Shown here: positions 2,481 to 16,474 of the stretch, piece after piece
Numbering within the stretch: the first letter of the stretch is position 1
Layout of the letters: every line of letters begins with the position of its first letter
Source of the DNA: a virus
Lineage: Duplodnaviria; Heunggongvirae; Uroviricota; Caudoviricetes
Strand: one strand, 5' to 3'
IMG/VR virus record: IMGVR_UViG_3300001765_000297
DNA length: 64,000 nucleotides
Notes under the pieces: model-generated
What the model was told of the DNA's origin: nothing
Databases searched by the model: none
The model's input: the letters and a program-made list of their open reading frames with translations, nothing else
Program-made: the position numbers and the translations under genes

Positions 2481-2504
2481 TCATCATAACCAAAACATTC
2501 AGAC

Positions 2505-2672
2505 ATGGCAACAATAACAACAAAAACGACAATCGAGTTAGACCAAAGAGAAATCACAAATATTTTGGTTTCTCACTTTCAAGATAAGGGTATATTAAAA
2601 GATAATGTTCATACTTCCAATATTCATATTCGTGAAGAGGGTGGACAAATCAAATGTACAATTAAAGAATAA
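2505..2672 (+). CDS. small hypothetical protein (55 aa)
   Basis: ATG at canonical 24-nt distance from -10; not in ORF track (<60 aa). Confidence 0.4.
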   Translation: MATITTKTTIELDQREITNILVSHFQDKGILKDNVHTSNIHIREEGGQIKCTIKE

Positions 2673-2689
2673 TATAAAACCTCTCAGAC

Positions 2690-2965
2690 ATGGACAAATT
2701 AAATTTCACCACAAAACTTTCAGGTTTAACCAAGCCAAGATTTAAACATGATTGTACTGAATGTACATATTTGGGCAGACACAATGGTAAAGACCTTTAT
2801 CATTGTACACAGGTTGGAAATCCTACAATTATAGTAAGGCATTCAAATCATCCCGCAGAATATGTTTCAGGTATGGTATTTGCTCGTAAAGCAGTTGAGG
2901 ATTGTGATTTTAACAATAGCTTTGCTCAGGCATACATGAGAGCCAAAGCATTAAATTTAATATAA
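2690..2965 (+). CDS. hypothetical protein
   Basis: ORF; likely co-transcribed with 2505..2672. Confidence 0.5.
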   Translation: MDKLNFTTKLSGLTKPRFKHDCTECTYLGRHNGKDLYHCTQVGNPTIIVRHSNHPAEYVSGMVFARKAVEDCDFNNSFAQAYMRAKALNLI

Positions 2966-2985
2966 AAATATAATTTTGGTTTATA

Positions 2986-3024
2986 GGGATGTTCCGTTTA
3001 ATCAGAACGGCATCCCTTTTTTTA
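2986..3024 (+). terminator. intrinsic terminator GGGATGTTCCG..CGGCATCCC + T7
   Basis: GC hairpin followed by TTTTTTT. Confidence 0.6.
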
Positions 3025-3034
3025 TTGCCGGAAA

Positions 3035-3064
3035 TGTAACCCTAATGTACTATTGTCCGTATAA
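3035..3064 (+). promoter_or_regulatory. phage promoter TGTAAC-N17-CGTATAA
   Basis: motif + conserved leader. Confidence 0.6.
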
Positions 3065-3087
3065 CCATCATAACCAAAACAAATATT

Positions 3088-3348
3088 ATGGCAACTCAAA
3101 AATCCATCGACAAAAAGTACAACTTCAAGACAGGTTTTAATGTTGGCTATGTAGAACTAGATAACATTATTACGGGCAAAACTCAACCATATTTGAAAGT
3201 AAGTAAACTCAGAGGCACATATCCTAACTATGAAAGAAATTCATTTAAGGGTATTATAATGGATAACTTTAAAACATTCAAGGCAATCAGTATTAATGCC
3301 AAAGGTGAATATGTTTACAAAGAATGTAAGAATCCCTATCAGAAATGA
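3088..3348 (+). CDS. hypothetical protein
   Basis: ORF with promoter/leader. Confidence 0.5.
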   Translation: MATQKSIDKKYNFKTGFNVGYVELDNIITGKTQPYLKVSKLRGTYPNYERNSFKGIIMDNFKTFKAISINAKGEYVYKECKNPYQK

Positions 3349-3375
3349 AACCCTACGGGGTTTCTTTCCGTATAA
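3347..3375 (+). promoter_or_regulatory. terminator hairpin GAAACCC-tacg-GGGTTTC whose 5' arm is the -35 (GAAACC) of promoter ..CGTATAA(3369-3375)
   Basis: hairpin + motif spacing 16. Confidence 0.5.
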
Positions 3376-3399
3376 TCGACATAACCAAAACATAAAGAC

Positions 3400-3828
3400 A
3401 TGAGCAAATTAATTATCGGATTAAAATTTTCACCCGCAACACTTTTATCTGCAACCGCAATTGGTGTTACAAAAGTATTAGTTACTTATGGTGGTGGAAT
3501 GGGTGGTTCACATAAAACTTACTATTGCACAGATTTTCAATTGAAAAAGTCTAATGGAATGTATGTTGCTAAACTCACCAATGGTGAAGTAATTGAAATC
3601 AATCCTCGTTATGTGGTTGAAATCAAAACAAGGACATTAGTTAAGGTCATTACTGATAAGACTGCTCACGCAAATTATCATAACCCTACTGTTAAGACTT
3701 CATTACTTGTTGAGTATATTGAATTGGAACACAATGAAACCTTTGAAGCCACCAATGAAAATCGTAACACTTCAAAATTTGATGACAAACGTATTGTTAT
3801 CAGCTATGAAGAGAACGTGCCAAAATAG
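3400..3828 (+). CDS. hypothetical protein
   Basis: ORF with promoter/leader. Confidence 0.55.
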   Translation: MSKLIIGLKFSPATLLSATAIGVTKVLVTYGGGMGGSHKTYYCTDFQLKKSNGMYVAKLTNGEVIEINPRYVVEIKTRTLVKVITDKTAHANYHNPTVKTSLLVEYIELEHNETFEATNENRNTSKFDDKRIVISYEENVPK

Positions 3829-3927
3829 AAACCTTTTCTGTATTTTCGATATGCCCTTGCGTTGTGATAACGCAGGGGTTTCTTCATTTAAAGCTGCAGC
3901 TTTTTCCAGGATTTCACCGGTGAAAAC

Positions 3928-3955
3928 GTAACTTTTTTCCGGCAATTACGTATAA
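3928..3955 (+). promoter_or_regulatory. phage promoter GTAAC-N16-CGTATAA driving ORF-free transcript
   Basis: motif; no ORF downstream until next promoter at 4060. Confidence 0.5.
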
Positions 3956-3961
3956 GAATTG

Positions 3962-4045
3962 TCAGGGTGAAACTTGGGTGAAGTAATCCAACCCTACCTT
4001 ATGTTCTAATCATAGAATGATTCTAAATACTATATGCAAGTAAAT
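3962..4045 (+). ncRNA. candidate small RNA, family copy 1 (motif GTAATCCAACCCTACC 3983-3998, hairpin TTCTA-atca-TAGAA)
   Basis: promoter-driven, non-coding; shares motif with copies at 9925 and 16976. Confidence 0.3.
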
Positions 4046-4059
4046 ATAATTAATGCAAA

Positions 4060-4089
4060 TGAAACCTTTTTATATCATTCTGCGTATAA
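4060..4089 (+). promoter_or_regulatory. phage promoter TGAAAC-N17-CGTATAA
   Basis: motif. Confidence 0.55.
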
Positions 4090-4105
4090 AAAATAAAAAG
4101 AAATT

Positions 4106-4375
4106 ATGGCTAACTGTGGTTATAGTGCTGATAAAAAATTAATTGCCGATGCAATTAAGTCAGGCAAAACATTAGATATTAAAGAGAAAGATAATAGTAT
4201 AATCATTCTCTTTAAGAATAAAATAAATGCACTTCTTTTGGAGGACACAGTTTCAAATCATGAGTATAATGGTCATAAATATGAGTTTCATTCAGCATGG
4301 AATAAATTATCAAGACTATTAATTAAACTGAATCAGATTAGACAAAAGAATATGTACTACAAATCAATTGAATAA
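4106..4375 (+). CDS. hypothetical protein
   Basis: ORF with promoter. Confidence 0.5.
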   Translation: MANCGYSADKKLIADAIKSGKTLDIKEKDNSIIILFKNKINALLLEDTVSNHEYNGHKYEFHSAWNKLSRLLIKLNQIRQKNMYYKSIE

Positions 4376-4430
4376 ACGTAACCTTTCATAGTCATTTTGC
4401 GTATAATCAGCATAACCAAAACATAAAGAC

Positions 4431-5036
4431 ATGGCACTTATTTTAGTTAGTTGTGAAGAAAGTCAGGCAGTAACAAAAGCATTCAGAGCATTAGGGCATG
4501 AAGCATATTCAAATGACCTTAAACCTTGTAGTGGTGGACATCCTGAATGGCATTTGCAAATGGATTGCTTTGAAGCAATTGCATTAAAGTCTTGGGATTT
4601 ACTTATTGCTTTCCCTACTTGTACTTATCTTACAGTTAGTGCAAACAAATGGTATAAAGACCAACCTAAGAGAAAAAGTGGTGCTTTGGTAGGTGCGGAG
4701 AGAAGACAAGCAAGACTTGACGCAATTGATTTCTTCATGGCATTCGTTAATGCTGATGTACCGAGGATTGCAATTGAAAACCCTATTGGAGTTATGTCGA
4801 CAGTATATCGCAAACCCAATCAGGTTATACAACCTTGGATGTTTGGACATGGCGAAACCAAAGCAACTTGCTTATGGCTTAAGAACTTACCTAACTTGAA
4901 ACCAACAGATGTTGTTGAAGGCAGAGTTGGTGCAATGCATTTACTTCCTAAAACTGACAACAGAGCAGAATTAAGGTCAAAGACTTATCAAGGTGTTGCA
5001 GATGCAATGGCAAAACAATGGTCAGAGTGCTTATAG
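4431..5036 (+). CDS. truncated C5-cytosine-methyltransferase-like protein (motif IV PTC and motif VI ENP present; SAM glycine loop degenerate)
   Basis: LILVSCEESQAVTKAFRALGHEAYSNDLKP aligns to C5-MTase motif I region but lacks FxGxGG; FPTCTYLTVSANK ~ PCQxFSxAGK; IENPIG ~ ENV. Confidence 0.4.
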   Translation: MALILVSCEESQAVTKAFRALGHEAYSNDLKPCSGGHPEWHLQMDCFEAIALKSWDLLIAFPTCTYLTVSANKWYKDQPKRKSGALVGAERRQARLDAIDFFMAFVNADVPRIAIENPIGVMSTVYRKPNQVIQPWMFGHGETKATCLWLKNLPNLKPTDVVEGRVGAMHLLPKTDNRAELRSKTYQGVADAMAKQWSECL

Positions 5037-5100
5037 CACTTTGACTTTTTGTAACAACCGAATGTCCATTTTCGTATAATCATAACCAAAACAAGATAAC

Positions 5101-5469
5101 ATGAAACTCAATAACAAAACAATTCTCGTAGTAAGTGACAATGGTGAAATGGATATTTTCTTACTTGATGGTGGTGTTGCCACTATTCACCACAATGGCG
5201 AGAGATTCTTAACAACTTACATTCAGAATCGTGCAACACCTGACGACCTGAGAAATCCTGATTTTTGGACTTCTGATGTCATGAGTGATAGCAAACAGTA
5301 TATTAAAGACTGGAAACCTACACAGAAGTACATTAGTTCAAAAATGATTTTGGATGCAGCTCGTTGGCTTCTCGCAGGTTTTGGAAATGGTACTATCTTA
5401 TTCCTAAATAATTACAATGAAGTTGCTGACCTCATGGAGGAAGCTGGAATTTGGAATACTGCTGAGTAA
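5101..5469 (+). CDS. hypothetical protein
   Basis: ORF with promoter/leader. Confidence 0.5.
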   Translation: MKLNNKTILVVSDNGEMDIFLLDGGVATIHHNGERFLTTYIQNRATPDDLRNPDFWTSDVMSDSKQYIKDWKPTQKYISSKMILDAARWLLAGFGNGTILFLNNYNEVADLMEEAGIWNTAE

Positions 5470-5524
5470 TGTAACAAATTATTGTCCAATTACGTATAAT
5501 CAATGTACACTAAAACATAAAGAC

Positions 5525-5860
5525 ATGACAAAAAAAGAATGTGCAGAATTAAGCGAAAAGGCAACAGAGATTTCCGAAGGTGTTCAAAGAGCAATCAAAG
5601 AAGTCACCAAGGACAAACCACTAGTATTCTTTGGTGATGAACCTGAACAGGAAGACCTTGATGAAGCACCTTTTGGATACGCAGTTAGCCGACATGGAAA
5701 TTTCCTTGATGGCAATGTACAGAGGGTTTGCGGTGATGATGTCACACTCTTTTTAAGAGGCGATGATTGGGGCGACACAGTTGAACAAAACTTATCTGAC
5801 CTACCTTTCGAGGCACTGATTATGATTCTTGACAAACTTGAAGAAATATTGGAGGACTAA
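5525..5860 (+). CDS. hypothetical acidic protein (start moved to ATG at leader distance from promoter 5471-5499)
   Basis: -10 CGTATAA 5493-5499, 25-nt leader, ATG 5525. Confidence 0.5.
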   Translation: MTKKECAELSEKATEISEGVQRAIKEVTKDKPLVFFGDEPEQEDLDEAPFGYAVSRHGNFLDGNVQRVCGDDVTLFLRGDDWGDTVEQNLSDLPFEALIMILDKLEEILED

Positions 5861-5863
5861 ATT

Positions 5864-6208
5864 ATGGAACTCACATTAGTAAAAACCCGCACATTTAAAC
5901 TTGAACCCTATGGTAAGTTTAGAATTTCAATGGCGAGAAAAGCAAAAGGTTATCTACCAAATATTATTCCTCTACATGAATTGGATATTGACCACGATAC
6001 TTCGATGCCGTTCACAGAGCAACAGGAGAAAGATATTATAAAGTTAATGAAAGCCAATAAAACAGATATTCTAACTGATGGCTCATACTTTGGATTCTAC
6101 ACAAGAGCAGGAGGAGGCGAATTTGCAAGTCTGTGCCATATAAGACACCCAAAGCTAATAAAATATAGGGAAGATGAAAGTTTTAAGGAACTAGTAGACG
6201 GAGAATAA
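5864..6208 (+). CDS. hypothetical protein
   Basis: ORF translationally coupled to upstream gene. Confidence 0.5.
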   Translation: MELTLVKTRTFKLEPYGKFRISMARKAKGYLPNIIPLHELDIDHDTSMPFTEQQEKDIIKLMKANKTDILTDGSYFGFYTRAGGGEFASLCHIRHPKLIKYREDESFKELVDGE

Positions 6209-6260
6209 ACCGGTGAAATCCGGCACAAAAAATTGATTGTCCATGTTTTGGTTATATTAA

Positions 6261-6297
6261 GGGTGTAGTTGTTAACCAGACAACCACCCTTTTTTTA
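6261..6297 (+). terminator. intrinsic terminator GGGTGTAGTTG..CAACCACCC + T7
   Basis: hairpin + T-tract. Confidence 0.6.
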
Positions 6298-6365
6298 TTT
6301 AAGTAAAACGTAACCTTTTAATTGTTAATGTCGTATAACCATCATAACCACTAATAAATAGCACT

Positions 6366-7259
6366 ATGGACACAACAATCAAAAGTACTTACCCAATGGT
6401 AAGTTCACCCGAAGAAGTAAATGATAACGGTAAATTTTCAACACTTAATTTTGGTATGTTTACTACCCTAAAATATAATAGGGGTGAAGACAGTGGAATT
6501 GATAATAACCGTTTATCTAGGTTTAAGAAACTTTGGAATGATAATGAATATTTTAAAGATGATTTACATCTTTATGTTAATAGAGCATTAGAAACTATTG
6601 ACGGTCATCATCATTTACATCTTCATATATTTCTCAAAAGCATTGGTATCGACCTACCAATTAATTTTACAGTATTGACACAGGCAGAATATAATGAAGG
6701 TACATTACTTCAGAAAATTGGTGCGATTGCAAGGCGAAATGCAGTAACTTCAAAATGGGATAGTAAGGCTCATTTCAACGTAGCATTAAAATTACGTTTA
6801 CCTTTGGCAATTGCAATTCAGAATCTTAAAGCAGAGTATATGAGAAAGTATAGTACTGATGGTAGAATGATAACTCCATCACGTATTTTTGCCATTCTTA
6901 CATCGGATAGTAAATGGTTAAATAGTGATTTAGTAACTGTTGAAGATTATGGTAAGGAGGAATTAATACCGGTAATGTCTACCGAAAAATTTAAAAAAGA
7001 GTTTGAATTTGTTTGTAAGGTTATTAACTATCTTACCGAATGGAATTGTGTTTATGAAGAAACTGCAAAAATCACCCAATTTAATATGATACGTGCAACA
7101 ATGCCTATGATTTGGGATAATATGTTAAATATGGATAAATTTCTTGCAGAGATTGAATCAAAAGAATTGAAAGAGAGATTTAAGGGTGTGGCAAATACTG
7201 TCAAGGGTTGTGTAATGTACACTAAAAGATTTCAGAAGAAAATGTTAAACGAATATTAA
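6366..7259 (+). CDS. hypothetical protein (297 aa)
   Basis: ORF with promoter (6311-6345) and leader. Confidence 0.6.
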   Translation: MDTTIKSTYPMVSSPEEVNDNGKFSTLNFGMFTTLKYNRGEDSGIDNNRLSRFKKLWNDNEYFKDDLHLYVNRALETIDGHHHLHLHIFLKSIGIDLPINFTVLTQAEYNEGTLLQKIGAIARRNAVTSKWDSKAHFNVALKLRLPLAIAIQNLKAEYMRKYSTDGRMITPSRIFAILTSDSKWLNSDLVTVEDYGKEELIPVMSTEKFKKEFEFVCKVINYLTEWNCVYEETAKITQFNMIRATMPMIWDNMLNMDKFLAEIESKELKERFKGVANTVKGCVMYTKRFQKKMLNEY

Positions 7260-7272
7260 TAAATATAATAAT

Positions 7273-7313
7273 GGGGTTGCAATTTGTAACCCCATTTATT
7301 TTAACTCGTATAA
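7273..7313 (+). promoter_or_regulatory. terminator GGGGTT..AACCCC with -35 TGTAAC (7285-7290) in the hairpin, -10 CGTATAA 7307-7313
   Basis: hairpin/T-rich + motif. Confidence 0.55.
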
Positions 7314-7318
7314 TATCT

Positions 7319-7777
7319 ATGAATATATTTGAACTACAAACAGAAACCGTACTTAACAACCACGGGAATGTCCAATTAATTTATATTGGTGAAAGTGTTG
7401 TTGCAACCAAAATCTTAAAAGAATCAACAAATAAAAACAAGTTATTTAAAAATGCTTGTTCGCCATATTTAACACCAACTGGAAGACAAAAAAAAACTGA
7501 GTTTGTTTATCATTCACCATCAAATAATATAGATATAAGAATTGAATGTAAGTCTAGAAAAACCCTGGGTTTAATTGGTGAGATAACAGACGAATTAAAT
7601 TTTATTACTAACATACCTGAGAAACAATATTGTTTGGTTTTAAGCGAAATATTACTCAGTAATTATATTTTAGATAGAATAAATACCATTGTAGTAGAAA
7701 AGGAATTGCAAGATAAGATTTGGGTTGGTAGTTTAGAACAGTTTAAAAGTTTCTTAAAGGAACATATTAAATTGTAA
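7319..7777 (+). CDS. hypothetical protein; apparently leaderless (ATG 5 nt after -10)
   Basis: first ATG after promoter; ORF-track start 7271 lies inside terminator. Confidence 0.5.
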   Translation: MNIFELQTETVLNNHGNVQLIYIGESVVATKILKESTNKNKLFKNACSPYLTPTGRQKKTEFVYHSPSNNIDIRIECKSRKTLGLIGEITDELNFITNIPEKQYCLVLSEILLSNYILDRINTIVVEKELQDKIWVGSLEQFKSFLKEHIKL

Positions 7778-7802
7778 CCTTATCAATGTACATAACGTAT
7801 AA
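7773..7802 (+). promoter_or_regulatory. phage promoter TGTAAC-N17-CGTATAA
   Basis: motif. Confidence 0.6.
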
Positions 7803-7807
7803 TACTC

Positions 7808-8002
7808 ATGATACTTTTAACAACCATAACAACTAAGATTCAGAAAGTCATTAAACCCGAAGATGATATAAGGTTTCTTGATGTACGCTACTTGGATAAG
7901 TGGATAAGAAATTATCCACAGTGTTTTCCAAAGTTCGTATTGAATAATGAGCATAAGATATTGTTCAACCCTAATAAACTAAGATATGAATTTCACAAAT
8001 GA
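7808..8002 (+). CDS. hypothetical protein; leaderless-type start
   Basis: ATG 5 nt after -10. Confidence 0.4.
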   Translation: MILLTTITTKIQKVIKPEDDIRFLDVRYLDKWIRNYPQCFPKFVLNNEHKILFNPNKLRYEFHK

Positions 8003-8420
8003 ATTAGATTTTCTTGGCAGCTTTTGGAAAGAAGCACAGAGAATCACAGGTAACATATCAACAGAATTGCCAAAGATTAATCCGAAGGCAAAAATGATTG
8101 GTAAGCACCTTGCAGTTGTTCAATATAAAGACCTTGAAAATTGGAGTGTTGAGGGCTTGTTCGGCAAGTCTGAAAATCTTGATGCACTTGCAAGAAAGAT
8201 TTCATTTATGGTAAATAAAGGTGATGCACAGAATGTCAAACCTCTTATTGAAAGAATATTAACTAAGGGTGTTAAGGCACAAACAAAACCAAAATTAGTA
8301 CGCACTGGCTATACTTGTGATGCAGAATTCTATGGCTTTGGTCATTTCCGTTGGGATTACAAAGCATACATATTAAAGGCAGATGAATTGAAAAGAGTAA
8401 GAGAGTATTTTAATATGTAA
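7986..8420 (+). CDS. hypothetical protein
   Basis: ORF overlapping upstream gene end. Confidence 0.5.
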   Translation: MNFTNELDFLGSFWKEAQRITGNISTELPKINPKAKMIGKHLAVVQYKDLENWSVEGLFGKSENLDALARKISFMVNKGDAQNVKPLIERILTKGVKAQTKPKLVRTGYTCDAEFYGFGHFRWDYKAYILKADELKRVREYFNM

Positions 8421-8469
8421 CATTTCAATGTTGATTTGCGTATAAGCTGCATAACCAATACATAGAGAC

Positions 8470-8814
8470 ATGAGCGAAATTAAATTTGTTAAGTTAACCG
8501 AAGAAGAATTTGAAAGCCGTTTTAATATGGTAATGAATCACTTCTATGCAGACCCTTGTGATTGCCCGTTTGGTGGTGGAATGTTTGAAACCTATGGACA
8601 GGAAGTTGAGTACATCAACAACATCATGAAAGGTACTGATGAAAACCTGAAACGCAGAATTTGGACTATTTTGGATTCCGATGGAGTAATGTGTTTTGTA
8701 AGTGGCTATCACTTTGTAAATCGTTTTGGCTATCTTATTACCGAGGAAGAAGTTGAAGAAGGAACTGAATACACCTTAGAACTCATGGGAACTGAGGATG
8801 AAGAAGAAGAATAA
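8470..8814 (+). CDS. hypothetical protein with acidic C-terminal tail
   Basis: ORF with promoter 8419-8450 and leader. Confidence 0.55.
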   Translation: MSEIKFVKLTEEEFESRFNMVMNHFYADPCDCPFGGGMFETYGQEVEYINNIMKGTDENLKRRIWTILDSDGVMCFVSGYHFVNRFGYLITEEEVEEGTEYTLELMGTEDEEEE

Positions 8815-8832
8815 ACAAATCTACTAAAATTA

Positions 8833-8876
8833 AAACCCTCTTGGTGTAACCCTAGAGGGTTTTTTTACGTATAACC
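8833..8876 (+). repeat. 44-bp terminator/promoter cassette, exact duplicate of 9448..9491
   Basis: AAACCCTCTTGGTGTAACCCTAGAGGGTTTTTTTACGTATAACC identical at both loci; hairpin AAACCCTCT/AGAGGGTTT with GTAACC in loop. Confidence 0.8.
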
Positions 8877-8898
8877 TGCATAACCAATACATAAAGAC

Positions 8899-9114
8899 AT
8901 GGAAAAGAAATACTTTTTATTCGGAAGTGAAATTTGTGATGCAATGGAAGAAGATGGCATTGAAGCTGCGCTTAAAGTTGCTGAGGAAGGTGGTTTTGCA
9001 ACCTACTATTGGGATGAACACAGTACTCCAAGTGAACTACTTGCAGAGTACGATGGTTGGAACTCCTATATGGAAATCACCGAGGCAGACTACATCAGAT
9101 TTCAAAACTTATAA
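8899..9114 (+). CDS. hypothetical protein
   Basis: ORF with promoter/leader. Confidence 0.5.
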   Translation: MEKKYFLFGSEICDAMEEDGIEAALKVAEEGGFATYYWDEHSTPSELLAEYDGWNSYMEITEADYIRFQNL

Positions 9115-9201
9115 TCACCGGTAATTTAATTAAAAACCCTGGAAAACGTAACCTTTTCCGGGGTTTTTGCGTATAACCATCATAACCAATACATACACAA
9201 A

Positions 9202-9435
9202 ATGGGAATACTAAGAATTAGTGCTAAATGTTCTGACTTATGTTGGACTGAGTACACAGATGCTAAAGGTAATAAAACCGAGAGTGATGGCTATGTGCCA
9301 GAAGGAATTGGAATATCTTCTGATGGTGATTGTGGTGACTATGTTAGCCTTGATATCGACATGCAGACTGGTCAAATTCAGAATTGGAAACCTGTTAGCG
9401 ATGCTCGTGTAATCAAAGCACAGAAATCTGCATAA
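9202..9435 (+). CDS. hypothetical protein
   Basis: ORF with promoter (9151-9180) whose -35 sits in hairpin CCCTGGAAAA..TTTTCCGGGG. Confidence 0.5.
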   Translation: MGILRISAKCSDLCWTEYTDAKGNKTESDGYVPEGIGISSDGDCGDYVSLDIDMQTGQIQNWKPVSDARVIKAQKSA

Positions 9436-9447
9436 CTTTTAAAATAT

Positions 9448-9491
9448 AAACCCTCTTGGTGTAACCCTAGAGGGTTTTTTTACGTATAACC
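9448..9491 (+). repeat. 44-bp terminator/promoter cassette, exact duplicate of 8833..8876
   Basis: see 8833. Confidence 0.8.
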
Positions 9492-9513
9492 ACTATAACT
9501 AATACATAAAGAC

Positions 9514-9726
9514 ATGAATTACAAAGTAGTATTTGAAATCGAAGTGGAAGCCGAATCACCACTTGATGCAGCAAAAGAAGTTCAAGAAATGTTGAACGAG
9601 CATAATAACTGGCAGTATTACATTCAATCCTCTGAGGGGTCAGAAGATGTGTTTAGTGTTGACCTACAAGAGGAAGACGAAGATGCGGTACTTAAAGTGG
9701 ATAAATATATTCCAATGATTAAATAA
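9514..9726 (+). CDS. hypothetical acidic protein
   Basis: ORF with promoter/leader. Confidence 0.5.
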   Translation: MNYKVVFEIEVEAESPLDAAKEVQEMLNEHNNWQYYIQSSEGSEDVFSVDLQEEDEDAVLKVDKYIPMIK

Positions 9727-9866
9727 TGGCAGTAAATCTCCACTGTCCTAATTGCGGAGAAAGTCTCGGCAAGGACAAAGAAAATCCAAAGGTAGCTAGT
9801 TGTGGTAATTGTGGTGAAAACGACATCAGAAACCCAAATGGTTATGATGATGAAGAAGATAATTAA
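9726..9866 (+). CDS. small zinc-ribbon protein (46 aa; CPNCG..CGNCG)
   Basis: TAATG overlap with upstream gene; two CxxC pairs. Confidence 0.35.
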   Translation: MAVNLHCPNCGESLGKDKENPKVASCGNCGENDIRNPNGYDDEEDN

Positions 9867-9889
9867 ACCGGAAATTCTCCGGTTTTTTT
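9867..9889 (+). terminator. intrinsic terminator ACCGGA..TCCGGT + T7
   Basis: hairpin + T-tract. Confidence 0.6.
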
Positions 9890-9918
9890 GTAACATATTT
9901 CCAGGCTTTTGCGTATAA
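9889..9918 (+). promoter_or_regulatory. phage promoter TGTAAC-N17-CGTATAA driving ORF-free transcript
   Basis: motif. Confidence 0.55.
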
Positions 9919-9924
9919 ATCATA

Positions 9925-10008
9925 TCACCGGTTGGCAATCAAAAATTGCCGAGAGAGTAGACTCCACCCTACCTTATATTCTGATATGGGTAGTAATACT
10001 ATCCACTT
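9925..10008 (+). ncRNA. candidate small RNA, family copy 2 (hairpin TTGGCAAT..ATTGCC, motif GTAGACTCCACCCTACC 9957-9973)
   Basis: promoter-driven, no ORF. Confidence 0.3.
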
Positions 10009-10037
10009 TGTAACCTTTTTAATGTAGTTACGTATAA
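10009..10037 (+). promoter_or_regulatory. phage promoter TGTAAC-N16-CGTATAA
   Basis: motif. Confidence 0.55.
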
Positions 10038-10042
10038 TACCT

Positions 10043-10183
10043 ATGAAAGAATTTAAAACCATACATTCAGGTGTTAATAAATCAGACGCAAATAAACTCG
10101 TTGGATGGTGGAATGCAAATACACCTAATTATTACTTCAAAAAGAAAGTAGGAAAACTCTATAATATAATAAAACAACTATAA
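10043..10183 (+). CDS. small hypothetical protein (46 aa), leaderless-type
   Basis: ATG 5 nt after -10; stop abuts next ATG. Confidence 0.3.
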   Translation: MKEFKTIHSGVNKSDANKLVGWWNANTPNYYFKKKVGKLYNIIKQL

Positions 10184-10184
10184 T

Positions 10185-10376
10185 ATGGAAACCAAAGCAA
10201 GTATGGTAGTTATGTCACACCTTAGTGATGCACAGGAATGCATAGGAATATGTATGTCTCAGGAAAACGCACATAAGAATATTAACTTCGCAAAGTTCGT
10301 TATATTGGAAACCGATGGCGACCTTAACATGATGATTGATGCTGATTCTCTGTGGGAAAAGTTTAATAAAAGATAG
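10185..10376 (+). CDS. hypothetical protein
   Basis: ORF. Confidence 0.45.
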   Translation: METKASMVVMSHLSDAQECIGICMSQENAHKNINFAKFVILETDGDLNMMIDADSLWEKFNKR

Positions 10377-10435
10377 TAAAAACGTAACCTTTCCTAACTA
10401 CTTATCGTATAACCACTATAACCAATACATATAAT

Positions 10436-11245
10436 ATGAAAGACATTAAATTTTCGACAATTGCAAAGGCTTGTAAAACAGTTGGTGTATCTTACCTTGG
10501 TGGTGTTAGTCTTAGTGCCAAAATGGTAAAGAATGAAAAAGTAGGTGTAATGACTTATAGCATTAATCTCAGTCCTGCCGAGACGAGCGGATATGATGTT
10601 TGCAGTCACAGTACTGCTGAATGTAGGTCGGGTTGTTTGGCTACAAGTGGTCACGCCAAAATGGATATCCAAAGTGGTAAGACTATTATTAGCGATGCAA
10701 GGATTAAAAAGACAAGGTTGTTTTTTGAGAACCAAGAATTTTTCATGGAATGGCTTATTGCTGAATTACTGAAATATCGTAAACAAGCCATTAAGAAAGG
10801 TATGGTTTTTTCTGCAAGGCTTAACACGATTTCAGATATCGATTGGGCAAACGTAAGAACTTTGGGAGGTTCAAATATCTTCGAATTGTTTTCTACAGTA
10901 CAGTTTTATGATTACACCAAAAACCCAAACAAGTTTGTTGGGAAACCTGAAAACTATCACCTGACTTTCAGTTTCACAGGTCGCAATTGGATTGCTTGTA
11001 ACACCTTATTGAAACGTGGAGAGAATATTGCTATGGTATTCAATGTTAACAAGGTTGAAGATTTACCAAAGACCTACAAAGGTTTTAAGGTTATCAATGG
11101 AGACGAAACCGATTACAGACCTAATGACGAGAAAGGTGTTATTGTAGGGTTGAAATGGAAACGTATTGCAGATAAGGTTGCCGAGGCACAAGTAAGACAG
11201 TCAATGTTCGTGGTGCAACCACTTGATGTTAACTGTGGATATTAA
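10436..11245 (+). CDS. hypothetical protein (269 aa, Cys/His cluster CSHSTAECRSGC)
   Basis: ORF with promoter 10382-10415 and leader. Confidence 0.6.
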   Translation: MKDIKFSTIAKACKTVGVSYLGGVSLSAKMVKNEKVGVMTYSINLSPAETSGYDVCSHSTAECRSGCLATSGHAKMDIQSGKTIISDARIKKTRLFFENQEFFMEWLIAELLKYRKQAIKKGMVFSARLNTISDIDWANVRTLGGSNIFELFSTVQFYDYTKNPNKFVGKPENYHLTFSFTGRNWIACNTLLKRGENIAMVFNVNKVEDLPKTYKGFKVINGDETDYRPNDEKGVIVGLKWKRIADKVAEAQVRQSMFVVQPLDVNCGY

Positions 11246-11266
11246 AAACTAATGTACATAAAAAGA

Positions 11267-11305
11267 CCTTGCAAGTGTAACCCTGCAAGGTCTTTCTTCG
11301 TATAA
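11267..11305 (+). promoter_or_regulatory. terminator CCTTGCA..TGCAAGG with -35 TGTAAC (11276-11281) in loop; -10 CGTATAA 11299-11305
   Basis: hairpin + motif spacing 17. Confidence 0.55.
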
Positions 11306-11329
11306 TGTCCATAACCAAACTCATATAAC

Positions 11330-11542
11330 ATGGTAAAATTTTATTACACAGTAGAAAAAGAAGTTGAAGATGAAAATCTCACTGGAAACAAAACAATAAC
11401 TGTTTATAGTATTGTTGATAATGAACCTGTAAAGCTAACAGATATTGAGTCTGTAATTGAAGACAACTCCAAAGAGAAGATTGTTGATTATTTTGATGAA
11501 AATGGTTTTGGCGATGCAGAATATGAATTAATATTACTGTAA
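11330..11542 (+). CDS. hypothetical acidic protein
   Basis: ORF. Confidence 0.5.
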   Translation: MVKFYYTVEKEVEDENLTGNKTITVYSIVDNEPVKLTDIESVIEDNSKEKIVDYFDENGFGDAEYELILL

Positions 11543-11591
11543 CCTTTTGATGTTATTCTTCGTATAATCAGCATAACTTAAAACAGACAAA

Positions 11592-12107
11592 ATGAAAATC
11601 GAATTAAAACGTATCAGTTTCAACGAACGAATGTCCGAAGAAACAAATTGCTTTTCTGCTGACCTCTATATTGATGGTAAGAAAGTTGGTAGTTGTAAGA
11701 ATGATGGTCGTGGCGGTTGTACTAATTATGGTGGGAACTCAACGGCTGACTATGATATTATCAAAGAAGCCGAAGCATATTGCAAGACATTGCCCAAAGT
11801 GAAATCAAGTTTTGACAATTTCGAATTTGAGCAAAGTCTTGAAAGTGTTATTGATGAATTGCTTGAAGAATATCTGAAAGCCAAAGAAAAAAGTAAAGTA
11901 CAAAAACTTATGGAGAAAGCAATTCTTTGGGGTGTTCCTGATAGTGGTAGATATACTATGATAAAATATAATATACCATTATCACACGTGGCTAATGTTC
12001 GACTTAAGAAATTACAGGAAACCGTTGATGCAATTAAAATAAAACATTGTGCAGGAAATGTACAAATCTTGAACACCAACCTTGAGGCTCTTGGAATAGT
12101 ATTATAA
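11592..12107 (+). CDS. hypothetical protein
   Basis: ORF with promoter 11541-11575. Confidence 0.55.
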   Translation: MKIELKRISFNERMSEETNCFSADLYIDGKKVGSCKNDGRGGCTNYGGNSTADYDIIKEAEAYCKTLPKVKSSFDNFEFEQSLESVIDELLEEYLKAKEKSKVQKLMEKAILWGVPDSGRYTMIKYNIPLSHVANVRLKKLQETVDAIKIKHCAGNVQILNTNLEALGIVL

Positions 12108-12125
12108 ACCCAACTATCAATTAAA

Positions 12126-12167
12126 ATCCTCTCAGAATGTAACTATCTGAGGGGATTTTTCGTATAA
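12126..12167 (+). promoter_or_regulatory. terminator ATCCTCTCAGA..TCTGAGGGGAT + T5 with -35 TGTAAC (12138-12143) in loop; -10 CGTATAA 12161-12167
   Basis: hairpin + motif. Confidence 0.55.
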
Positions 12168-12191
12168 CTAATGTACACTAAAACATATGAT

Positions 12192-12380
12192 ATGAAAGCA
12201 AAAAGATTTTTCGAGATTTACATTAAGTTTCTCAGTGGAGAAGGAATTGATTTTAAAGCCGATGGAATAAAGAAAGGTGAAATCTTGGAATTGATTAGCT
12301 TTGCTCAGGCACATCTGAGTACTTCGGCTTCCAATTCATTTGTATATTCTCTTGTTGCAGAAGTATTAGAAAAACCGTAA
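12192..12380 (+). CDS. hypothetical protein (start moved to ATG 24 nt after -10)
   Basis: ORF-track ATG 12171 lies 3 nt after -10; 12192 matches standard leader length. Confidence 0.45.
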   Translation: MKAKRFFEIYIKFLSGEGIDFKADGIKKGEILELISFAQAHLSTSASNSFVYSLVAEVLEKP

Positions 12381-12430
12381 CAATTAATGTCCGGCATTCG
12401 TATAATGTACATAACTAATACATAAATATT

Positions 12431-12634
12431 ATGGAAGACTTAACGTATGACAATGATATCCGAGGCGATTATGCCTTATTCATTGATGCAAAACATTTTC
12501 TTGACGAATGGGAACTAGATGATGAAACCAAAAAACTGGTAGGTTCTAAACTCACATTCTTCCGGGTTATCCAAGATGGTGAACAAGGTAATCACGGTTG
12601 GATTGAGAATGGTGAAATAATTCAATGGGGATAA
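12431..12634 (+). CDS. hypothetical protein
   Basis: ORF with promoter 12378-12410. Confidence 0.5.
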   Translation: MEDLTYDNDIRGDYALFIDAKHFLDEWELDDETKKLVGSKLTFFRVIQDGEQGNHGWIENGEIIQWG

Positions 12635-12656
12635 TACTAACATAATAATTATATCA

Positions 12657-12860
12657 ATGTTAAAACCAGTAAGAAAAAACGTAAGTGCTGAAACATTAAA
12701 GTATAATATCTTTATATGTCAAAAGGAAATTGATGATGCTCGGCAAATTGTTAAGGATGCCTATAAGGAAATCCGTAAAACTATAAAAGAGACTGAAAAA
12801 ATAATTACCAAACAACGCCATTATAAAGAATTGTTAAAGCAATGTAACAATCACCGGTGA
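12657..12860 (+). CDS. hypothetical basic protein
   Basis: ORF, no own promoter seen. Confidence 0.4.
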   Translation: MLKPVRKNVSAETLKYNIFICQKEIDDARQIVKDAYKEIRKTIKETEKIITKQRHYKELLKQCNNHR

Positions 12861-12899
12861 TTTTGCGTATAATAAGTATTAACCACAAATACATATATT

Positions 12900-13592
12900 A
12901 TGAAAACTAGAGAAGAATTAATCGATGCAGTTATTGCTGAACTTAAAGCAGACATCCTTTCAGGTGACGTAACAGTACTGGAAGAAATCCTAGGTTTTGT
13001 TGAGAAAGACAAACTCGTTGAGTCATTACCAGAAGAACGCTGGTCAGAATTCCGGACCTCTTCAGATTACTTCAGCATCAAAGCAACTGGTTTCAATGAA
13101 GTTATTCAGAGGGAAGAAATTCAAATCCATTGTGGAGAGAATGGAAACCTGATGATTTATAAAACCCCGGAAGGATTTGTTGTTGATGCTTATGATGCTA
13201 ATGGCGAGAACATAGACACTATGGCAATCTGGGAAGACGGTATCAATCCACTTGTTGAGGGTGAAGATTGTATAAAGGATGATGAAGGCAACTGTGCTTT
13301 CTGTGGTCAGAAATGTTGGGAAGGCGAAATGTGTGACGAACAACAGGGTGATGGTTTCCAAGAACCCACTTGTTTCAGTCCTGCTGAACTCCGGGAATTT
13401 ATTGAAGAATGGGGGCAAACTCATCATGAAATCTGTGCCGAACTCGAATATTGGGAAAACGGTAATGACACACAAGACCTACTAATGGTCGACTACTTCT
13501 GGCTTGAACCTATGAATGTATGGCTGCCAAAGCTATCATCAATGTACACAGAAAGACAGGAAGCAATTGCGAAATTCCTGAGATTAGGATAA
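12900..13592 (+). CDS. hypothetical acidic protein (230 aa)
   Basis: ORF with promoter 12844-12880. Confidence 0.6.
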   Translation: MKTREELIDAVIAELKADILSGDVTVLEEILGFVEKDKLVESLPEERWSEFRTSSDYFSIKATGFNEVIQREEIQIHCGENGNLMIYKTPEGFVVDAYDANGENIDTMAIWEDGINPLVEGEDCIKDDEGNCAFCGQKCWEGEMCDEQQGDGFQEPTCFSPAELREFIEEWGQTHHEICAELEYWENGNDTQDLLMVDYFWLEPMNVWLPKLSSMYTERQEAIAKFLRLG

Positions 13593-13680
13593 TCAATGTC
13601 CGATATTAAATCCCTCTGTAACATTACAGGGGGATTTTTCGTATAAGCAATGTACATAATAATAACCAATATATAAAGAT

Positions 13681-13962
13681 ATGAAAACATCATTAGTAAT
13701 ACCAATGCCTAACGAGGTTAATACCTTGGATGATGTACGGAAATTCTTTACAGACCTGAAAGCTGCGGACTATATCTTTCATCCCGATGATGATTTCACC
13801 GAGTACAGCAATACCAATATTAATGATGGTAAGCTGCTGAATGTTATAATGCAAAGATGTTGGGTAATATGTGAAGACCAATGTACAGGTACTGATGATA
13901 TTTATACAATTGCTATAAATATTCAGTATCCAGAAAACACACCAATAGGATATTTACTGTAA
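13681..13962 (+). CDS. hypothetical protein
   Basis: ORF with promoter in hairpin 13605-13650. Confidence 0.5.
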   Translation: MKTSLVIPMPNEVNTLDDVRKFFTDLKAADYIFHPDDDFTEYSNTNINDGKLLNVIMQRCWVICEDQCTGTDDIYTIAINIQYPENTPIGYLL

Positions 13963-14009
13963 CATTTACAGGGGAATTTTCGTACAACACTCATAAAAAA
14001 ATAAATATT

Positions 14010-14300
14010 ATGGCAGCTAAAAAATCTCAGAGTCTAAGAGAAAAACTCACAGACTCAATAATGAAAAACAAGTATGGTGATGATGACCCAAAGTACGACC
14101 AGGATAACAGGAATTTCCTGAACACTCTTTCAATCCTTGAATTGGAGCGTATGTGTGAAGAGGAATTCGATGTTGATGGTGAGGACGATGAAGATGAAGA
14201 CGATGAAAGTGATTTTGGTGATGAACTTAATGGTGAATTCTTTGACCCACTTGATGATGAATATAATGCACATGAAAGTAATTTCGATGACGAACTGTAA
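14010..14300 (+). CDS. highly acidic small protein (candidate DNA-mimic/anti-restriction type)
   Basis: 96 aa, long D/E runs (GEDDEDEDDESDFGDE..). Confidence 0.5.
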   Translation: MAAKKSQSLREKLTDSIMKNKYGDDDPKYDQDNRNFLNTLSILELERMCEEEFDVDGEDDEDEDDESDFGDELNGEFFDPLDDEYNAHESNFDDEL

Positions 14301-14358
14301 CCTTTGTTGCAGTTCTTCGTATAATTGTTATAATTAATATTCACTAATACATATCACG

Positions 14359-14649
14359 ATGGAAGATTTTAAAGTAAAGCACACGATAACTGATAGGCAA
14401 GCAATTGTCAAAGCATTATGCTTACCTTCGTCAATACCTGATGGGTTCAAACTTAAGCCGCTTAAACCAATTGGGGTGTCGAAATTCAAAGGCGATAATA
14501 TGCCTTCCAATTGGAGTGTTAATACCAAATTTACAATTGGTTCAGAATATCCACTTTATGACGATGAAAACGGTTTAATATCGGTGGGTAATGATGGAGT
14601 TGGTTACAAGGTTATTGGTACTGCTTGGACTAAAATAAAATGGATTTAA
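14359..14649 (+). CDS. hypothetical protein
   Basis: ORF with promoter 14298-14340. Confidence 0.5.
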   Translation: MEDFKVKHTITDRQAIVKALCLPSSIPDGFKLKPLKPIGVSKFKGDNMPSNWSVNTKFTIGSEYPLYDDENGLISVGNDGVGYKVIGTAWTKIKWI

Positions 14650-14705
14650 TTCCGTAACCCTTTTTATCTATTCATCATATAACCATCATAACTAATACAT
14701 ATAAC

Positions 14706-15461
14706 ATGAAAGACTTTAATTTTAATAGTATTGACTGGTCAGAGTTGAGAAACCAGAAGAGAATGTTACTTGAAACCATTAATAATGATGCTGTTGACCC
14801 TGAGCATAAGGAAGGTCTGGAAGGTATCTTGAACCTTATTGACAGCCTACAAGACCATGCTGTGGATGAATTGGGAATTCCCGAAATGAATGTATATGAT
14901 TTCGAAGCCGAGGATGAACGTGAGAAAGAAACTCCCGAAGAAACCTTTGCCCGTGAGAATGCCCAGATTATTTTCCAAATGCGTATTGAAGGCGAAGGTC
15001 TTTATGTGGATGATGAAATGTCAAAGGAATTCATTGAAGGCATTGTTGATGATGAACAACACCGGTCAGCGATTAAGAATGCTATTAGGTTAAGAATTCT
15101 GGAAGAAGTTCAGGATTTCCCAAATGATTTCCAAAGGGATGCAGATGGTAAGCTAACCTATGATTACACCATGTATGATTATGGTTATGAAATTGAAAGC
15201 TATTGCAGGGAAATATTCTACAATGGAAAAACAAAAGAAGTATGGGTGTGCCGTGAATGTGGAAGTGACAGCGTTGAAAGTCATGCACTGGTTAATCCGA
15301 ATTGCCCAACCGATAATCCTACGGTAATTAACCTTGATGATTGTGAAAGTAATTATTGTTTCGATTGCCAGAAGAAAGTTGTTGTGGAAAAAAGAATAAT
15401 CCCAGTTCTTGCAATAAATGCCGAAATCGGAACAACTGATGGACACATCACAAAGAGATAA
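14706..15461 (+). CDS. hypothetical acidic protein with C-terminal Cys cluster (zinc-binding?)
   Basis: ORF with variant promoter (CATATAAC) 14653-14690. Confidence 0.6.
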   Translation: MKDFNFNSIDWSELRNQKRMLLETINNDAVDPEHKEGLEGILNLIDSLQDHAVDELGIPEMNVYDFEAEDEREKETPEETFARENAQIIFQMRIEGEGLYVDDEMSKEFIEGIVDDEQHRSAIKNAIRLRILEEVQDFPNDFQRDADGKLTYDYTMYDYGYEIESYCREIFYNGKTKEVWVCRECGSDSVESHALVNPNCPTDNPTVINLDDCESNYCFDCQKKVVVEKRIIPVLAINAEIGTTDGHITKR

Positions 15462-15502
15462 TAATATTGGATAGCAATGTCCGATTGGAGGGGAGCACTT
15501 AA

Positions 15503-15543
15503 AAACCCTGTTTCTGAGTATTTATCGGAAACAGGGTTTTTTT
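15503..15543 (+). terminator. intrinsic terminator AAACCCTGTTTC..GAAACAGGGTTT + T7 abutting ATG 15544
   Basis: 12-bp stem + T-tract. Confidence 0.7.
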
Positions 15544-15906: not shown

Positions 15907-15928
15907 ATTAAAAATACTTTGTTTATTT

Positions 15929-15958: not shown

Positions 15959-15965
15959 CATTCAT

Positions 15966-16470: not shown

Positions 16471-16474
16471 AGTT

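Follow-up and report, generated by a model that had tools for sequence, protein, structure and literature searches.

The closest described counterparts of the elements studied here are the PeSL of T4-like phages, which were reported as "small, composite terminator/promoter sequences" between ORFan genes and divided into five subclasses by the position of the stem-loop, including overlap with the -35 box (PMC2839356; PMC4122927). The promoter and terminator activities of PeSL and their mini-circles were shown experimentally, and these elements take part in modular shuffling (PMC2839356, PMC4122927). In this work, a stretch of 64,000 nucleotides from a virus of the Caudoviricetes (IMG/VR record IMGVR_UViG_3300001765_000297), referred to below as the window and forming part of the 91-kb contig JGI 3300002026 MIS_10000060, was analyzed for terminator hairpins that carry the -35 box of the following promoter. 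The promoters of the window share a two-box motif, GTAAC-N16/17-CGTATAA, and at nine of 44 of them the -35 box is enclosed by a hairpin with a T-rich tail. We propose, with a probability of roughly 0.7, that these elements are composite cassettes of an extracytoplasmic function (ECF) promoter and an intrinsic terminator, in a phage that runs most of its transcription via its own ECF sigma factor. Composite cassettes appear to have been described so far only for the sigma70 promoters of T4-like phages, and the ECF-sigma version would be new within the literature searched, in which neither a phage ECF sigma with such a motif nor a terminator overlapping an ECF -35 box was found described, which is not proof of absence.

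Like PeSL, the cassettes of the window are short intergenic combinations of a promoter and a stem-loop terminator or attenuator, present in tens of copies between small ORFan genes. G-T pairs occur in PeSL stems, and PeSL stem-loops may overlap the -35 box or fall between it and the -10 box. PeSL act as homologous recombination sites that add or remove gene modules, and the elements studied here look like such sites too, to judge from an indel between relatives that is bounded by cassettes and from the exact duplicate within the window. Differently, the PeSL promoter is of the host sigma70 type (TTGACA/TATAAT, preceded by an AT-rich region and followed by a Shine-Dalgarno sequence), whereas the promoters here are of the ECF type, assigned to a phage sigma and lacking a Shine-Dalgarno sequence. 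The stem-loops of PeSL lie mostly between the boxes or over the -10 box, and even downstream of it, whereas those of the window never extend past the -10 box. The activities of PeSL were assayed, whereas those of the window cassettes are predicted from sequence, and the window phage is not a recognised T4-like virus, though it carries rIIA/rIIB-like and Dda-like genes.

In the window, 38 exact matches of the two-box motif were found against 0.06 expected, and 46 copies with at most one mismatch against 1.0 expected. The exact copies comprised 27 on the + strand at 2.4-17.2 kb and 11 on the - strand at 25-58 kb, and every copy had the same orientation as its open reading frames (ORFs). The extended consensus was T-GTAAC-(C/A)-T-T-T ... 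T-rich ... CGTATAA, giving the proposed promoter form TTGTAAC(C/A)TTT-N-T-rich-CGTATAA with about 46 occurrences. Concentration in a small-ORFan region is shared with PeSL, with 33 promoters at 2.4-17.2 kb, between which the ORFs encode 40-300 aa and mostly lack a Pfam match. The promoter blocks and the sigma gene were located as follows.

2452..17217, + strand: early small-ORF region with 27 exact and 6 one-mismatch promoters; a seventh one-mismatch promoter lies at 19584
25338..57826, - strand: promoters of the leftward block, 11 exact and 1 one-mismatch; only the one at 53120 has an adjacent terminator
895..1548, + strand: ECF-type sigma factor of 217 aa that presumably reads every GTAAC...CGTATAA promoter
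841..868, + strand: GTAAC-N16-CGTTAAA, the sigma gene's variant promoter, which TAtcTTTG overlaps at 851-858

The -35 box contains AAC, the -10 box contains CGT and the spacer is 16-17 nt, as in ECF promoters. The SigW promoters of B. subtilis read tGAAACnTTTt...CGTA, and T-tracts in their spacers are stimulatory (PMC5758882); in flavobacteria, the CGT -10 box has been used as an ECF signature (PMC9723704). The window promoters resemble SigW promoters in the AAC of the -35 box (tGAAAC/GTAAC), the CGTA at the -10 box, the spacer of 16-17 nt and the T-richness next to the -35 box, and differ from them in a T-rich run beside the -10 box and in the extension of the latter to CGTATAA (PMC5758882). 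A reading as generic sigma70 promoters was rejected, as a sigma70 scan was not enriched (100 found, 85 expected). In a preliminary description of this DNA, GTAAC and CGTATAA were treated as a generic pair of -35 and -10 boxes; the boxes are ECF-type, and a matching SigW-like sigma is encoded by the phage at 895-1548.

The protein at 895-1548 contains the Pfam domains Sigma70_r2 and Sigma70_r4_2, and it matched NCBIfam TIGR02937 (sigma70-ECF) with 76.6 bits at a cut-off of 42.9, as well as PHROG 1740 (RNA polymerase sigma factor). Its best solved structure was that of B. subtilis SigW (5wuq, E 7.6e-27). From these matches and the promoter type, the window promoters are very probably read by the phage's own ECF sigma. 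In contrast to the bacterial stress regulon of SigW, this phage-encoded sigma would serve about 46 viral promoters, and no anti-sigma was identified here. The sigma gene itself is preceded by a promoter of the same type only as the CGTTAAA variant. The TAtcTTTG overlapping it corresponds to the -7 box of the Bacteroidota sigmaA type (definition: PMC9723704). The CGTTAAAG variant also precedes the sigma gene in the relative L007, and a TAnnTTTG box lies near the sigma gene in the relatives L005 and L007. Together with the scarcity of Shine-Dalgarno-like motifs (before only three of the 107 ORFs in the window) and the weak similarities of the sigma, this box suggests that the host is probably of the Bacteroidota type.

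Sigma cascades are known from other phages, such as gp28 and gp33/34 of SPO1 and gp55 of T4. Early transcription of SPO1 depends on the host sigmaA, after which phage sigmas redirect the host core polymerase (PMC13401047). The window differs from SPO1 and T4 in having a canonical two-domain ECF sigma, and its promoters span the small-gene and replication-type blocks rather than one late class.

After most of the + strand promoter copies, a conserved 24-nt leader, CATAACCAAtACATAAAGAC, is followed by ATG. This leader may serve as a translation signal in a host without Shine-Dalgarno sequences. At the promoters 7286, 7774, 10010, 45729, 53120 and 57826, the ATG stands 5-7 nt past CGTATAA, and these genes are of a leaderless type.

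7313-7320, 7802-7809 and 10037-10044, + strand: sites of leaderless-type genes
53093-53086, 57799-57791 and 45701-45692, - strand: sites of leaderless-type genes

Hairpins were detected by a scan for hairpin plus T-tail based on RNAfold and by a second search that looked, at each promoter, for the single best hairpin around the -35 box, and the z-scores were obtained from an independent folding tool. The embedded hairpins were found at the promoters 3347, 7286, 8846, 9148, 9461, 11277, 12139, 13618 and 14297. Their stems run from 5-17 nt upstream of the G of GTAAC to positions +10 to +21 and contain 4-6 G-C pairs, and a T-rich tail continues up to CGTATAA. The energies ranged from -10.9 to -19.0 kcal/mol and the z-scores from -2.8 to -6.3.

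3342..3375, + strand: embedded; hairpin 3342-3368, GAAACCC/GGGTTTC, whose 5' arm holds the -35 (GAAAC variant), followed by TTTC and CGTATAA; -10.9 kcal/mol, z -2.8
7270..7313, + strand: embedded; hairpin 7270-7296, -35 GTAACC forming the 3' arm, with a -35-proximal T-rich tail; -16.3 kcal/mol, z -4.3; the gene after it (+ strand) is of the leaderless type with ATG 5 nt past CGTATAA
8833..8876, + strand: embedded, copy 1 of the 44-bp duplicate; stem AAACCCTCT/AGAGGGTTT, -35 in the 12-nt loop, then T7 and CGTATAA; -15.3 kcal/mol, z -3.2
9131..9176, + strand: embedded; stem CCCTGGAAAA/TTTTCCGGGG with one U·G pair, -35 in the loop CGTAACC, then T5 and CGTATAA; sense -19.0 versus antisense -16.6 kcal/mol, z -3.1
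9448..9491, + strand: embedded, copy 2 of the 44-bp duplicate; identical to 8833..8876
11262..11305, + strand: embedded; stem GACCTTGCA/TGCAAGGTC, -35 in the loop, tail TTTCTT, then CGTATAA; -16.3 kcal/mol, z -6.3
12123..12167, + strand: embedded; stem TCCTCTCAGA/TCTGAGGGGA with one U·G pair, -35 in the 9-nt loop, then T5 and CGTATAA; sense -17.6 versus antisense -14.6 kcal/mol, z -5.0
13608..13646, + strand: embedded; stem TCCCTCTGTA/TACAGGGGGA with one U·G pair, part of the -35 lying in the 5' arm, followed by T5 and CGTATAA; sense -17.6 versus antisense -13.7 kcal/mol, z -4.5
14292..14324, + strand: embedded, not cited in the preliminary description; stem GAACTGTAAC/GTTGCAGTTC, -35 in the 5' arm, weak tail TTCTT; -11.5 kcal/mol, z -5.2

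The loops were 3-4 nt where the -35 box lies in an arm and 7-12 nt where it lies in the loop, compared with the usual 3-8 nt or so of intrinsic terminators. Tails of T5-T7 were present at 8833, 9136, 9448, 12125 and 13609, and weaker ones at 11264, 3347 and 14297. The stop codon of the upstream gene was located 28-36 nt before the -35 box in seven of the nine embedded cases (34 nt at the 8833 cassette) and at the -35 box in the other two, including the 14292..14324 cassette, where the TAA of GTAAC is itself the stop codon; the hairpins come after the stop. In the 8833 cassette, the single 3' arm AGAGGG has two possible 5' partners, CCCTCT and CCCTAG. Sub-threshold Rfam matches to the L10, His and L20 leaders at three cassettes (E 0.4-0.8) were discarded, as they reflect merely a terminator-like shape.

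The T fraction of the spacer end was 0.76 in the embedded cassettes and 0.53 in promoters without a hairpin, at a genome T fraction of 0.33. Since the T-rich spacer end is also found at hairpin-less promoters, the terminator appears to reuse T-richness already present in the promoter spacer. The class with the -35 box in the 3' arm appears to borrow the -35-proximal T-tract typical of ECF promoters.

Two further geometries were distinguished. In the abutting one (promoters 5051, 9890, 16508, 19584 and, on the - strand, 53120), the stem stops 4-8 nt short of the G of GTAAC, its T-tract merging with TTTGTAAC; in the upstream one (promoters 3036 and 6310), the terminator ends 19 nt before that G.

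5020..5079, + strand: abutting; hairpin 5020-5046, T-tract into the TTGTAAC of promoter 5051-5079; -16.2 kcal/mol
9865..9918, + strand: abutting; hairpin 9865-9885 plus T7, promoter 9890-9918 driving a non-coding unit; -9.7 kcal/mol
16475..16536, + strand: abutting; hairpin 16475-16500 plus T7, promoter 16508-16536, stem end 8 nt before the G; -19.7 kcal/mol
19551..19612, + strand: abutting; hairpin 19551-19580, promoter 19584-19612 (CGTATCA variant) before the rIIB-like gene; -18.0 kcal/mol
53093..53149, - strand: abutting; hairpin 53149-53124 plus T-tract, promoter 53120-53093, leaderless-type gene, stem end 4 nt before the G; -13.6 kcal/mol
2985..3064, + strand: upstream; terminator 2985-3017, promoter 3036-3064; -15.9 kcal/mol
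6259-6291 with promoter 6310-6338, + strand: upstream; -14.1 kcal/mol
24402..24430, + strand: stand-alone terminator ending the rightward block, CCCTCTG...CGGAGGG plus T7; it also scores on the - strand

The stand-alone terminator at 24402-24430 resembles the embedded hairpins in its AAACCCTC...GAGGGTTTTTTT style, and in the rightward block (1-24.4 kb) 12 of the 16 sense-strand sites with a hairpin of at most -12 kcal/mol and a T-tract are located at a promoter.

These data allowed the preliminary description to be adjusted. Of the ten sites at which it had placed the -35 box inside the terminator hairpin, those at 3347, 7273, 8833, 9151, 9448, 11267, 12126 and 13605 agreed with our folding, and there the T-tract forms the T-rich 3' end of the spacer before CGTATAA, as had been stated. 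The sites at 16475 and 53093 had been mis-described: both are abutting, their T-tract runs into TTTGTAAC, and 53093-53145 on the - strand therefore does not share the embedded architecture. The phrase "many junctions" is apt for a part of the early region only, in which 34 + strand promoters at 1.7-19.6 kb comprise 9 embedded, 4 abutting and 2 upstream cases and 19 without a terminator-like hairpin. The claim that each small early gene is insulated was overstated in view of these 19, and also because at eight junctions (3928, 7774, 8417, 11539, 12377, 13959 and 14297 on the + strand, 45729 on the - strand) the upstream gene ends with the TAA within GTAAC, so that its coding sequence overlaps the next promoter and read-through is unavoidable. 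What stands is the fused terminator-promoter cassette itself, which is supported in silico and by conservation, without complete insulation of every gene. That in silico support comprises the position after the stop codon, the stability on the sense strand, the varied yet paired stems, the absence of stems reaching into the -10 box or leader, the likeness to the terminator at 24402-24430, and the occurrence in distant relatives.

For the statistics, the 25 nt upstream and the spacer were shuffled separately in 2,200 trials, with a threshold of at most -10 kcal/mol for a hairpin enclosing the -35 box. Such a hairpin was obtained in 0.8% of the trials, compared with nine of the 44 window promoters. 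A swapped-partner control was uninformative, because hairpins lying wholly upstream and near-identical cassettes contaminate it, and the enclosing-hairpin shuffle test was used instead.

Relatives were found only by sigma alignment. Among 50,697 phage records, megablast with 8-12 kb gave no match, and tblastn with the sigma gave only matches of 24-34%, to crAss-like and unannotated gut phages; in IMG/VR neither the exact cassette pattern nor a single-protein locus search found anything. The set consisted of loci with sigma homologues of 32-50% identity, namely L005, L007, three IMG/VR contigs (168-363 kb) and 25 metagenome loci; 80 of 229 sigma-positive metagenomic loci were taken in. In these loci the motif was present at almost every small gene, with 199 matches in about 200 kb of metagenome loci, compared with one match in 292 kb of bacterial ECF loci from the same scan. 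The preliminary description had named absence or lack of conservation in relatives as evidence that would speak against the cassettes; on the contrary, the architecture was kept, with an enclosing hairpin of at most -10 kcal/mol at 58 of the 252 unique promoters (23%) of the window and 30 related loci.

Among these 58 family hairpins, the 3' stem end was located at a median of +18 from the G of GTAAC (interquartile range 17-20), and 19 had the -35 box in the loop, 22 had it in the 5' arm and 11 in the 3' arm. The arms varied between cassettes with the pairing kept, for example CCCTCT/AGAGGG, CCCTGGAAAA/TTTTCCGGGG and GACCTTGCA/TGCAAGGTC in the window, and CTATCA/TGATAG, CTACTA/TAGTAG and CCAGTCA/TGACTGG in L010. 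Folding was better on the sense strand in 44, equal in 5 and worse in 9; the mean difference was -2.8 kcal/mol, and the advantage of the sense strand, which is due to 57 G·U pairs, favours a fold of the transcript over a palindrome in the DNA. At least four T in the 8 nt after the G/C stem were present in 44 of the 58, and at least three T in the first four positions in 39. Conversely, in the 40 nt from CGT onward, hairpins of at most -8 kcal/mol occurred at only one of 249 promoters, below the shuffle rate, and the mean energy was no lower than in shuffles. The region from the -10 box onward is thus essentially unstructured, which suggests that the hairpin belongs to the upstream RNA and is excluded from the downstream mRNA. 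In L005, a complete terminator just upstream of the -35 box was observed at 3255-3280, 5691-5716 and 6455-6480 (- strand) with a second copy of the 3' arm (AAAGGGTTTT) in the spacer, so that one 5' arm could pair with either copy.

The same phage was assembled in six other samples, with 100% identity over 0.5-13.7 kb. Owing to this identity, compensatory changes at orthologous sites are not scorable, and no indel was found among the assemblies from these six samples. Two contig ends were set aside during the comparison: unrelated sequence at L014 1-171, joined at AAAGACATGAC, is an assembly chimera, and the Logan contig L019 starts exactly 30 nt short of where the 44-bp repeat ends, a start that reflects a k=31 break, not an RNA end.

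The 44-bp sequence AAACCCTCTTGGTGTAACCCTAGAGGGTTTTTTTACGTATAACC was found exactly twice in the window, at 8833-8876 and 9448-9491 on the + strand, with 0 copies expected in shuffles, which confirmed the identity of the two cassettes given in the preliminary description. The likeness of the two sites spans 110 nt with 81% identity (8801-8910 versus 9416-9525, repeat family D8); it begins about 30 nt upstream of the cassette and extends as far as the start codon, and the genes flanking the two copies are not paralogues. A direct comparison was available for the loci L037 and L038, from two metagenomes, which are 99.9% identical save for a module of about 740 bp with two ORFs in L037, bounded by promoter cassettes at 3852 and 4653. 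At this place L038 has one hybrid cassette, corresponding to cassette A up to CGTATAA and to cassette B from the leader, with the crossover in the shared CGTATAA/leader segment, and such a hybrid is the signature of homologous exchange between cassettes. Being repeats of 60-110 nt that flank unrelated small genes, the cassettes can thus serve as homologous recombination sites for the gain or loss of modules, which the sequences of one pair of relatives show. This was the only clean cassette-bounded indel found, and a second variable region (L023 versus L024) breaks at gene ends and not clearly in cassettes. It is plausible that the 44-bp duplicate of the window is a recombination substrate of the same kind.

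A mechanism consistent with these observations can be proposed. The host RNA polymerase with sigmaA probably transcribes the sigma gene first from the TAnnTTTG box, and the host core loaded with the phage sigma would then read the roughly 46 promoters. The likely start is about 6 nt past the motif, as the ATG of leaderless-type genes stands 5-7 nt after it. In the dense small-gene region, the predicted intrinsic terminator of one gene is superimposed on the ECF promoter of the next, as the sequence shows, with a C-rich 5' arm 10-17 nt upstream of the -35 box, the -35 box in the loop or either arm, and a G-rich 3' arm in the spacer, whose T-rich stretch, carried by ECF promoters in any case, doubles as the U-tract of the terminator. 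In intrinsic termination, the transcript is released 7-9 nt after the stem. The upstream RNAs should therefore end inside CGTATAA, about 6-12 nt before the next start, so that neighbouring RNAs would lie head to tail without overlapping. At several sites the length of the loops and the shortness of the T-tracts suggest that termination is partial and not complete. The element probably sets expression ratios and limits cumulative read-through in a region where nearly every gene has a strong promoter. A polymerase bound at the promoter would cover the 3' arm of the terminator, and an oncoming polymerase would meet it before transcribing the hairpin; the design would thus prevent read-through transcripts, not collisions. 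The further suggestion of the preliminary description, that termination is coupled to promoter occupancy, is pure speculation.

The superposition might also do more than save space. After intrinsic termination, bacterial polymerase need not leave the DNA and can start anew from the nearest promoter, which is known as recycling termination (PMC11347151) and lends a concrete form to the suggested coupling. By analogy, release inside the next -10 box would deliver the core polymerase directly to that promoter, where it could be captured by the abundant ECF sigma, an idea that we regard as highly tentative. The arrangements are alike in that intrinsic terminators lie close to the next promoter, and differ in that recycling was described over tens to hundreds of bp and for sigma70, superposition within less than 50 bp not being addressed there (PMC11347151). 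If true, such a relay would couple the termination of one gene to the initiation of the next, retain polymerase on the phage genome and equalise expression of the early block.

Several observations weigh against the composite reading. We infer termination and the start site from the sequence, and the host, hence the applicable terminator rules, from the TAnnTTTG box, the scarce Shine-Dalgarno motifs and the weak sigma similarities. At 8846, 9461 and 12139 the loops measure 9-12 nt, longer than in efficient intrinsic terminators, where 3-8 nt are usual, and the T-tracts are short or interrupted at 11264 (TTTCTT), 3347 (TTTC) and 14297 (TTCTT). Among the family hairpins, the 8 nt that follow the G/C stem contain fewer than four T in 14 of 58, and all seven embedded hairpins of L010 are followed by only TTT and then AAA, so some hairpins may not terminate. 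The terminators of L007 lie about 28 nt upstream of the -35 box, which means that the overlap is not obligatory. These large loops and weak tails, as well as the tolerance of read-through implied by the 19 of 34 early junctions without a hairpin, would suit structures that act at the 3' end of the mRNA, either shielding the upstream mRNA from 3' exonucleases after cleavage or serving in its processing, or acting as weak attenuators that only tune the read-through ratio while the polymerase mostly passes. We consider this unlikely, in view of the T-tracts that most family hairpins do have, the T5-T7 directly after stems of -14 to -19 kcal/mol at the strongest window sites, and the use of the same design at 24402-24430, where the rightward block needs a real stop against convergent transcription.

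An A-tract before and a T-tract after many stems also make these near-symmetric, and with the antisense strand more stable in 9 of 58 and the repeats bracketing the -35 box at a fixed distance, the inverted repeats could act as DNA, as the operator of a dimeric repressor or as a cruciform masking the -35 box and switching some early promoters. A precedent exists in the hairpin promoters of N4-like virion RNA polymerases, where, as in LUZ7 and N4, a hairpin overlaps the promoter (10.1101/2022.03.18.484859). In N4, however, every early promoter has the DNA hairpin, and it is the hairpin itself that a single-subunit polymerase recognises, whereas here 77% of the promoters of a two-box sigma type have no hairpin, so the repeat is not part of promoter recognition. 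Moreover, the arms differ widely within the genome and among relatives with the pairing kept, as expected of a structure and not of one protein's operator, and the G·U pairs that favour the sense strand are meaningless for duplex DNA. On these grounds, namely hairpin-less promoters, variable arms and sense-strand G·U bias, the N4-type hairpin promoter and the operator palindrome were rejected. Loops of 7-12 nt disfavour cruciform extrusion, and domain 4 of ECF sigmas binds the -35 box as duplex DNA; a function of the repeats as DNA is thus very improbable. The exact duplicate beside non-paralogous genes, the cassette-bounded indel between L037 and L038, the near-identical cassettes repeated many times in L010 and the PeSL precedent could instead mean that the cassettes are primarily recombination or mobility modules, the hairpin-promoter overlap being a by-product of repeated copying. 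However, the stems of most embedded cassettes in the window are unrelated, which indicates that they arose or diverged independently with pairing and position constrained, and the shared promoter and leader suffice for recombination, also at hairpin-less junctions. Mobility as the primary function is quite doubtful, and it would complement transcription by composite cassettes rather than exclude it.

Other features of the window were also recorded. Three paralogous non-coding units of about 90-100 nt lie on the + strand, each with its own GTAAC...CGTATAA promoter and ending at the next promoter, with the common core GAGTAGACTCCACCCTACCTTATATTCTG. Homologues are present in the distant relatives L009 (17050-17153), L008 (14388-14498) and L010 (6953-7098), in which GTAgACTCCAaCCTACC...TCTGA...TTCTAAATA is kept. 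The units gave no Rfam or tRNA match, and they are a candidate family of phage small RNAs. The window as a whole contained no tRNA and no Rfam match at gathering thresholds. The sigma gene and a divergent gene of 137 aa have a common variant promoter and leader, G[TA]AAC-N16/17-[CA]GTTAAAG...ACATAAACCAAA, which may represent a separate immediate-early promoter class. Genes for rIIA-like and rIIB-like proteins, a Dda-like helicase, an RNA ligase and a C5 cytosine DNA methyltransferase represent T4-style accessory genes.

3956-4060, 9919-10009 and 16970-17076, + strand: paralogous non-coding units
15930-15958, + strand: promoter without an ORF of at least 35 aa after it (15930-16260)
16340-16507, + strand: GcvB-like Rfam match (28.7 bits, E 0.005, below gathering) that ends at the strong terminator 16475-16500; may be another non-coding RNA
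53-466, - strand: divergent 137-aa gene
467-560 (- strand) and 841-895 (+ strand): variant promoter and leader stretches
26-60 and 516-550: 35-nt repeat GTTACGTTTTGAGTAAAGAAAATAAAATTATTTTT
17252-19543, + strand: rIIA-like gene (PHROG 612, E 9e-68)
19647-20810, + strand: rIIB-like gene
58542-60077 (- strand), 44653-45693 (- strand) and 23043-23936 (+ strand): Dda-like helicase, RNA ligase and C5 methyltransferase, as listed together
24440-24730: non-coding gap of about 300 bp between convergent blocks, with C-rich repeats TTTCCCCCATTTTCCCCCACGATGTCCCATTTATCCCCACC at about 24516-24566
41074-43569, - strand: 831-aa protein with a weak ART-PolyVal ADP-ribosyltransferase match (E 9e-5, below cut-off)

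The results extend composite cassettes from T4-like phages to a phage-encoded ECF sigma system in an uncultured family, which probably infects Bacteroidota and reaches up to jumbo size (contigs of 168-363 kb). For a group without a cultured member, a regulon map was gained that comprises about 46 promoters with their predicted start sites as well as a conserved leader and the leaderless genes, and the presumed host phylum is one with unusual promoters and no Shine-Dalgarno sequence. As elements of less than 50 bp, the cassettes could serve as orthogonal terminator-plus-promoter parts for the engineering of Bacteroidota. Their fixed geometry, with release predicted inside the next -10 box, makes a hand-over from terminator to promoter directly testable. 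Finally, the cassette-bounded indel supports the view that the exchange of gene modules is driven by repeated regulatory cassettes in phage lineages that are not related to each other.

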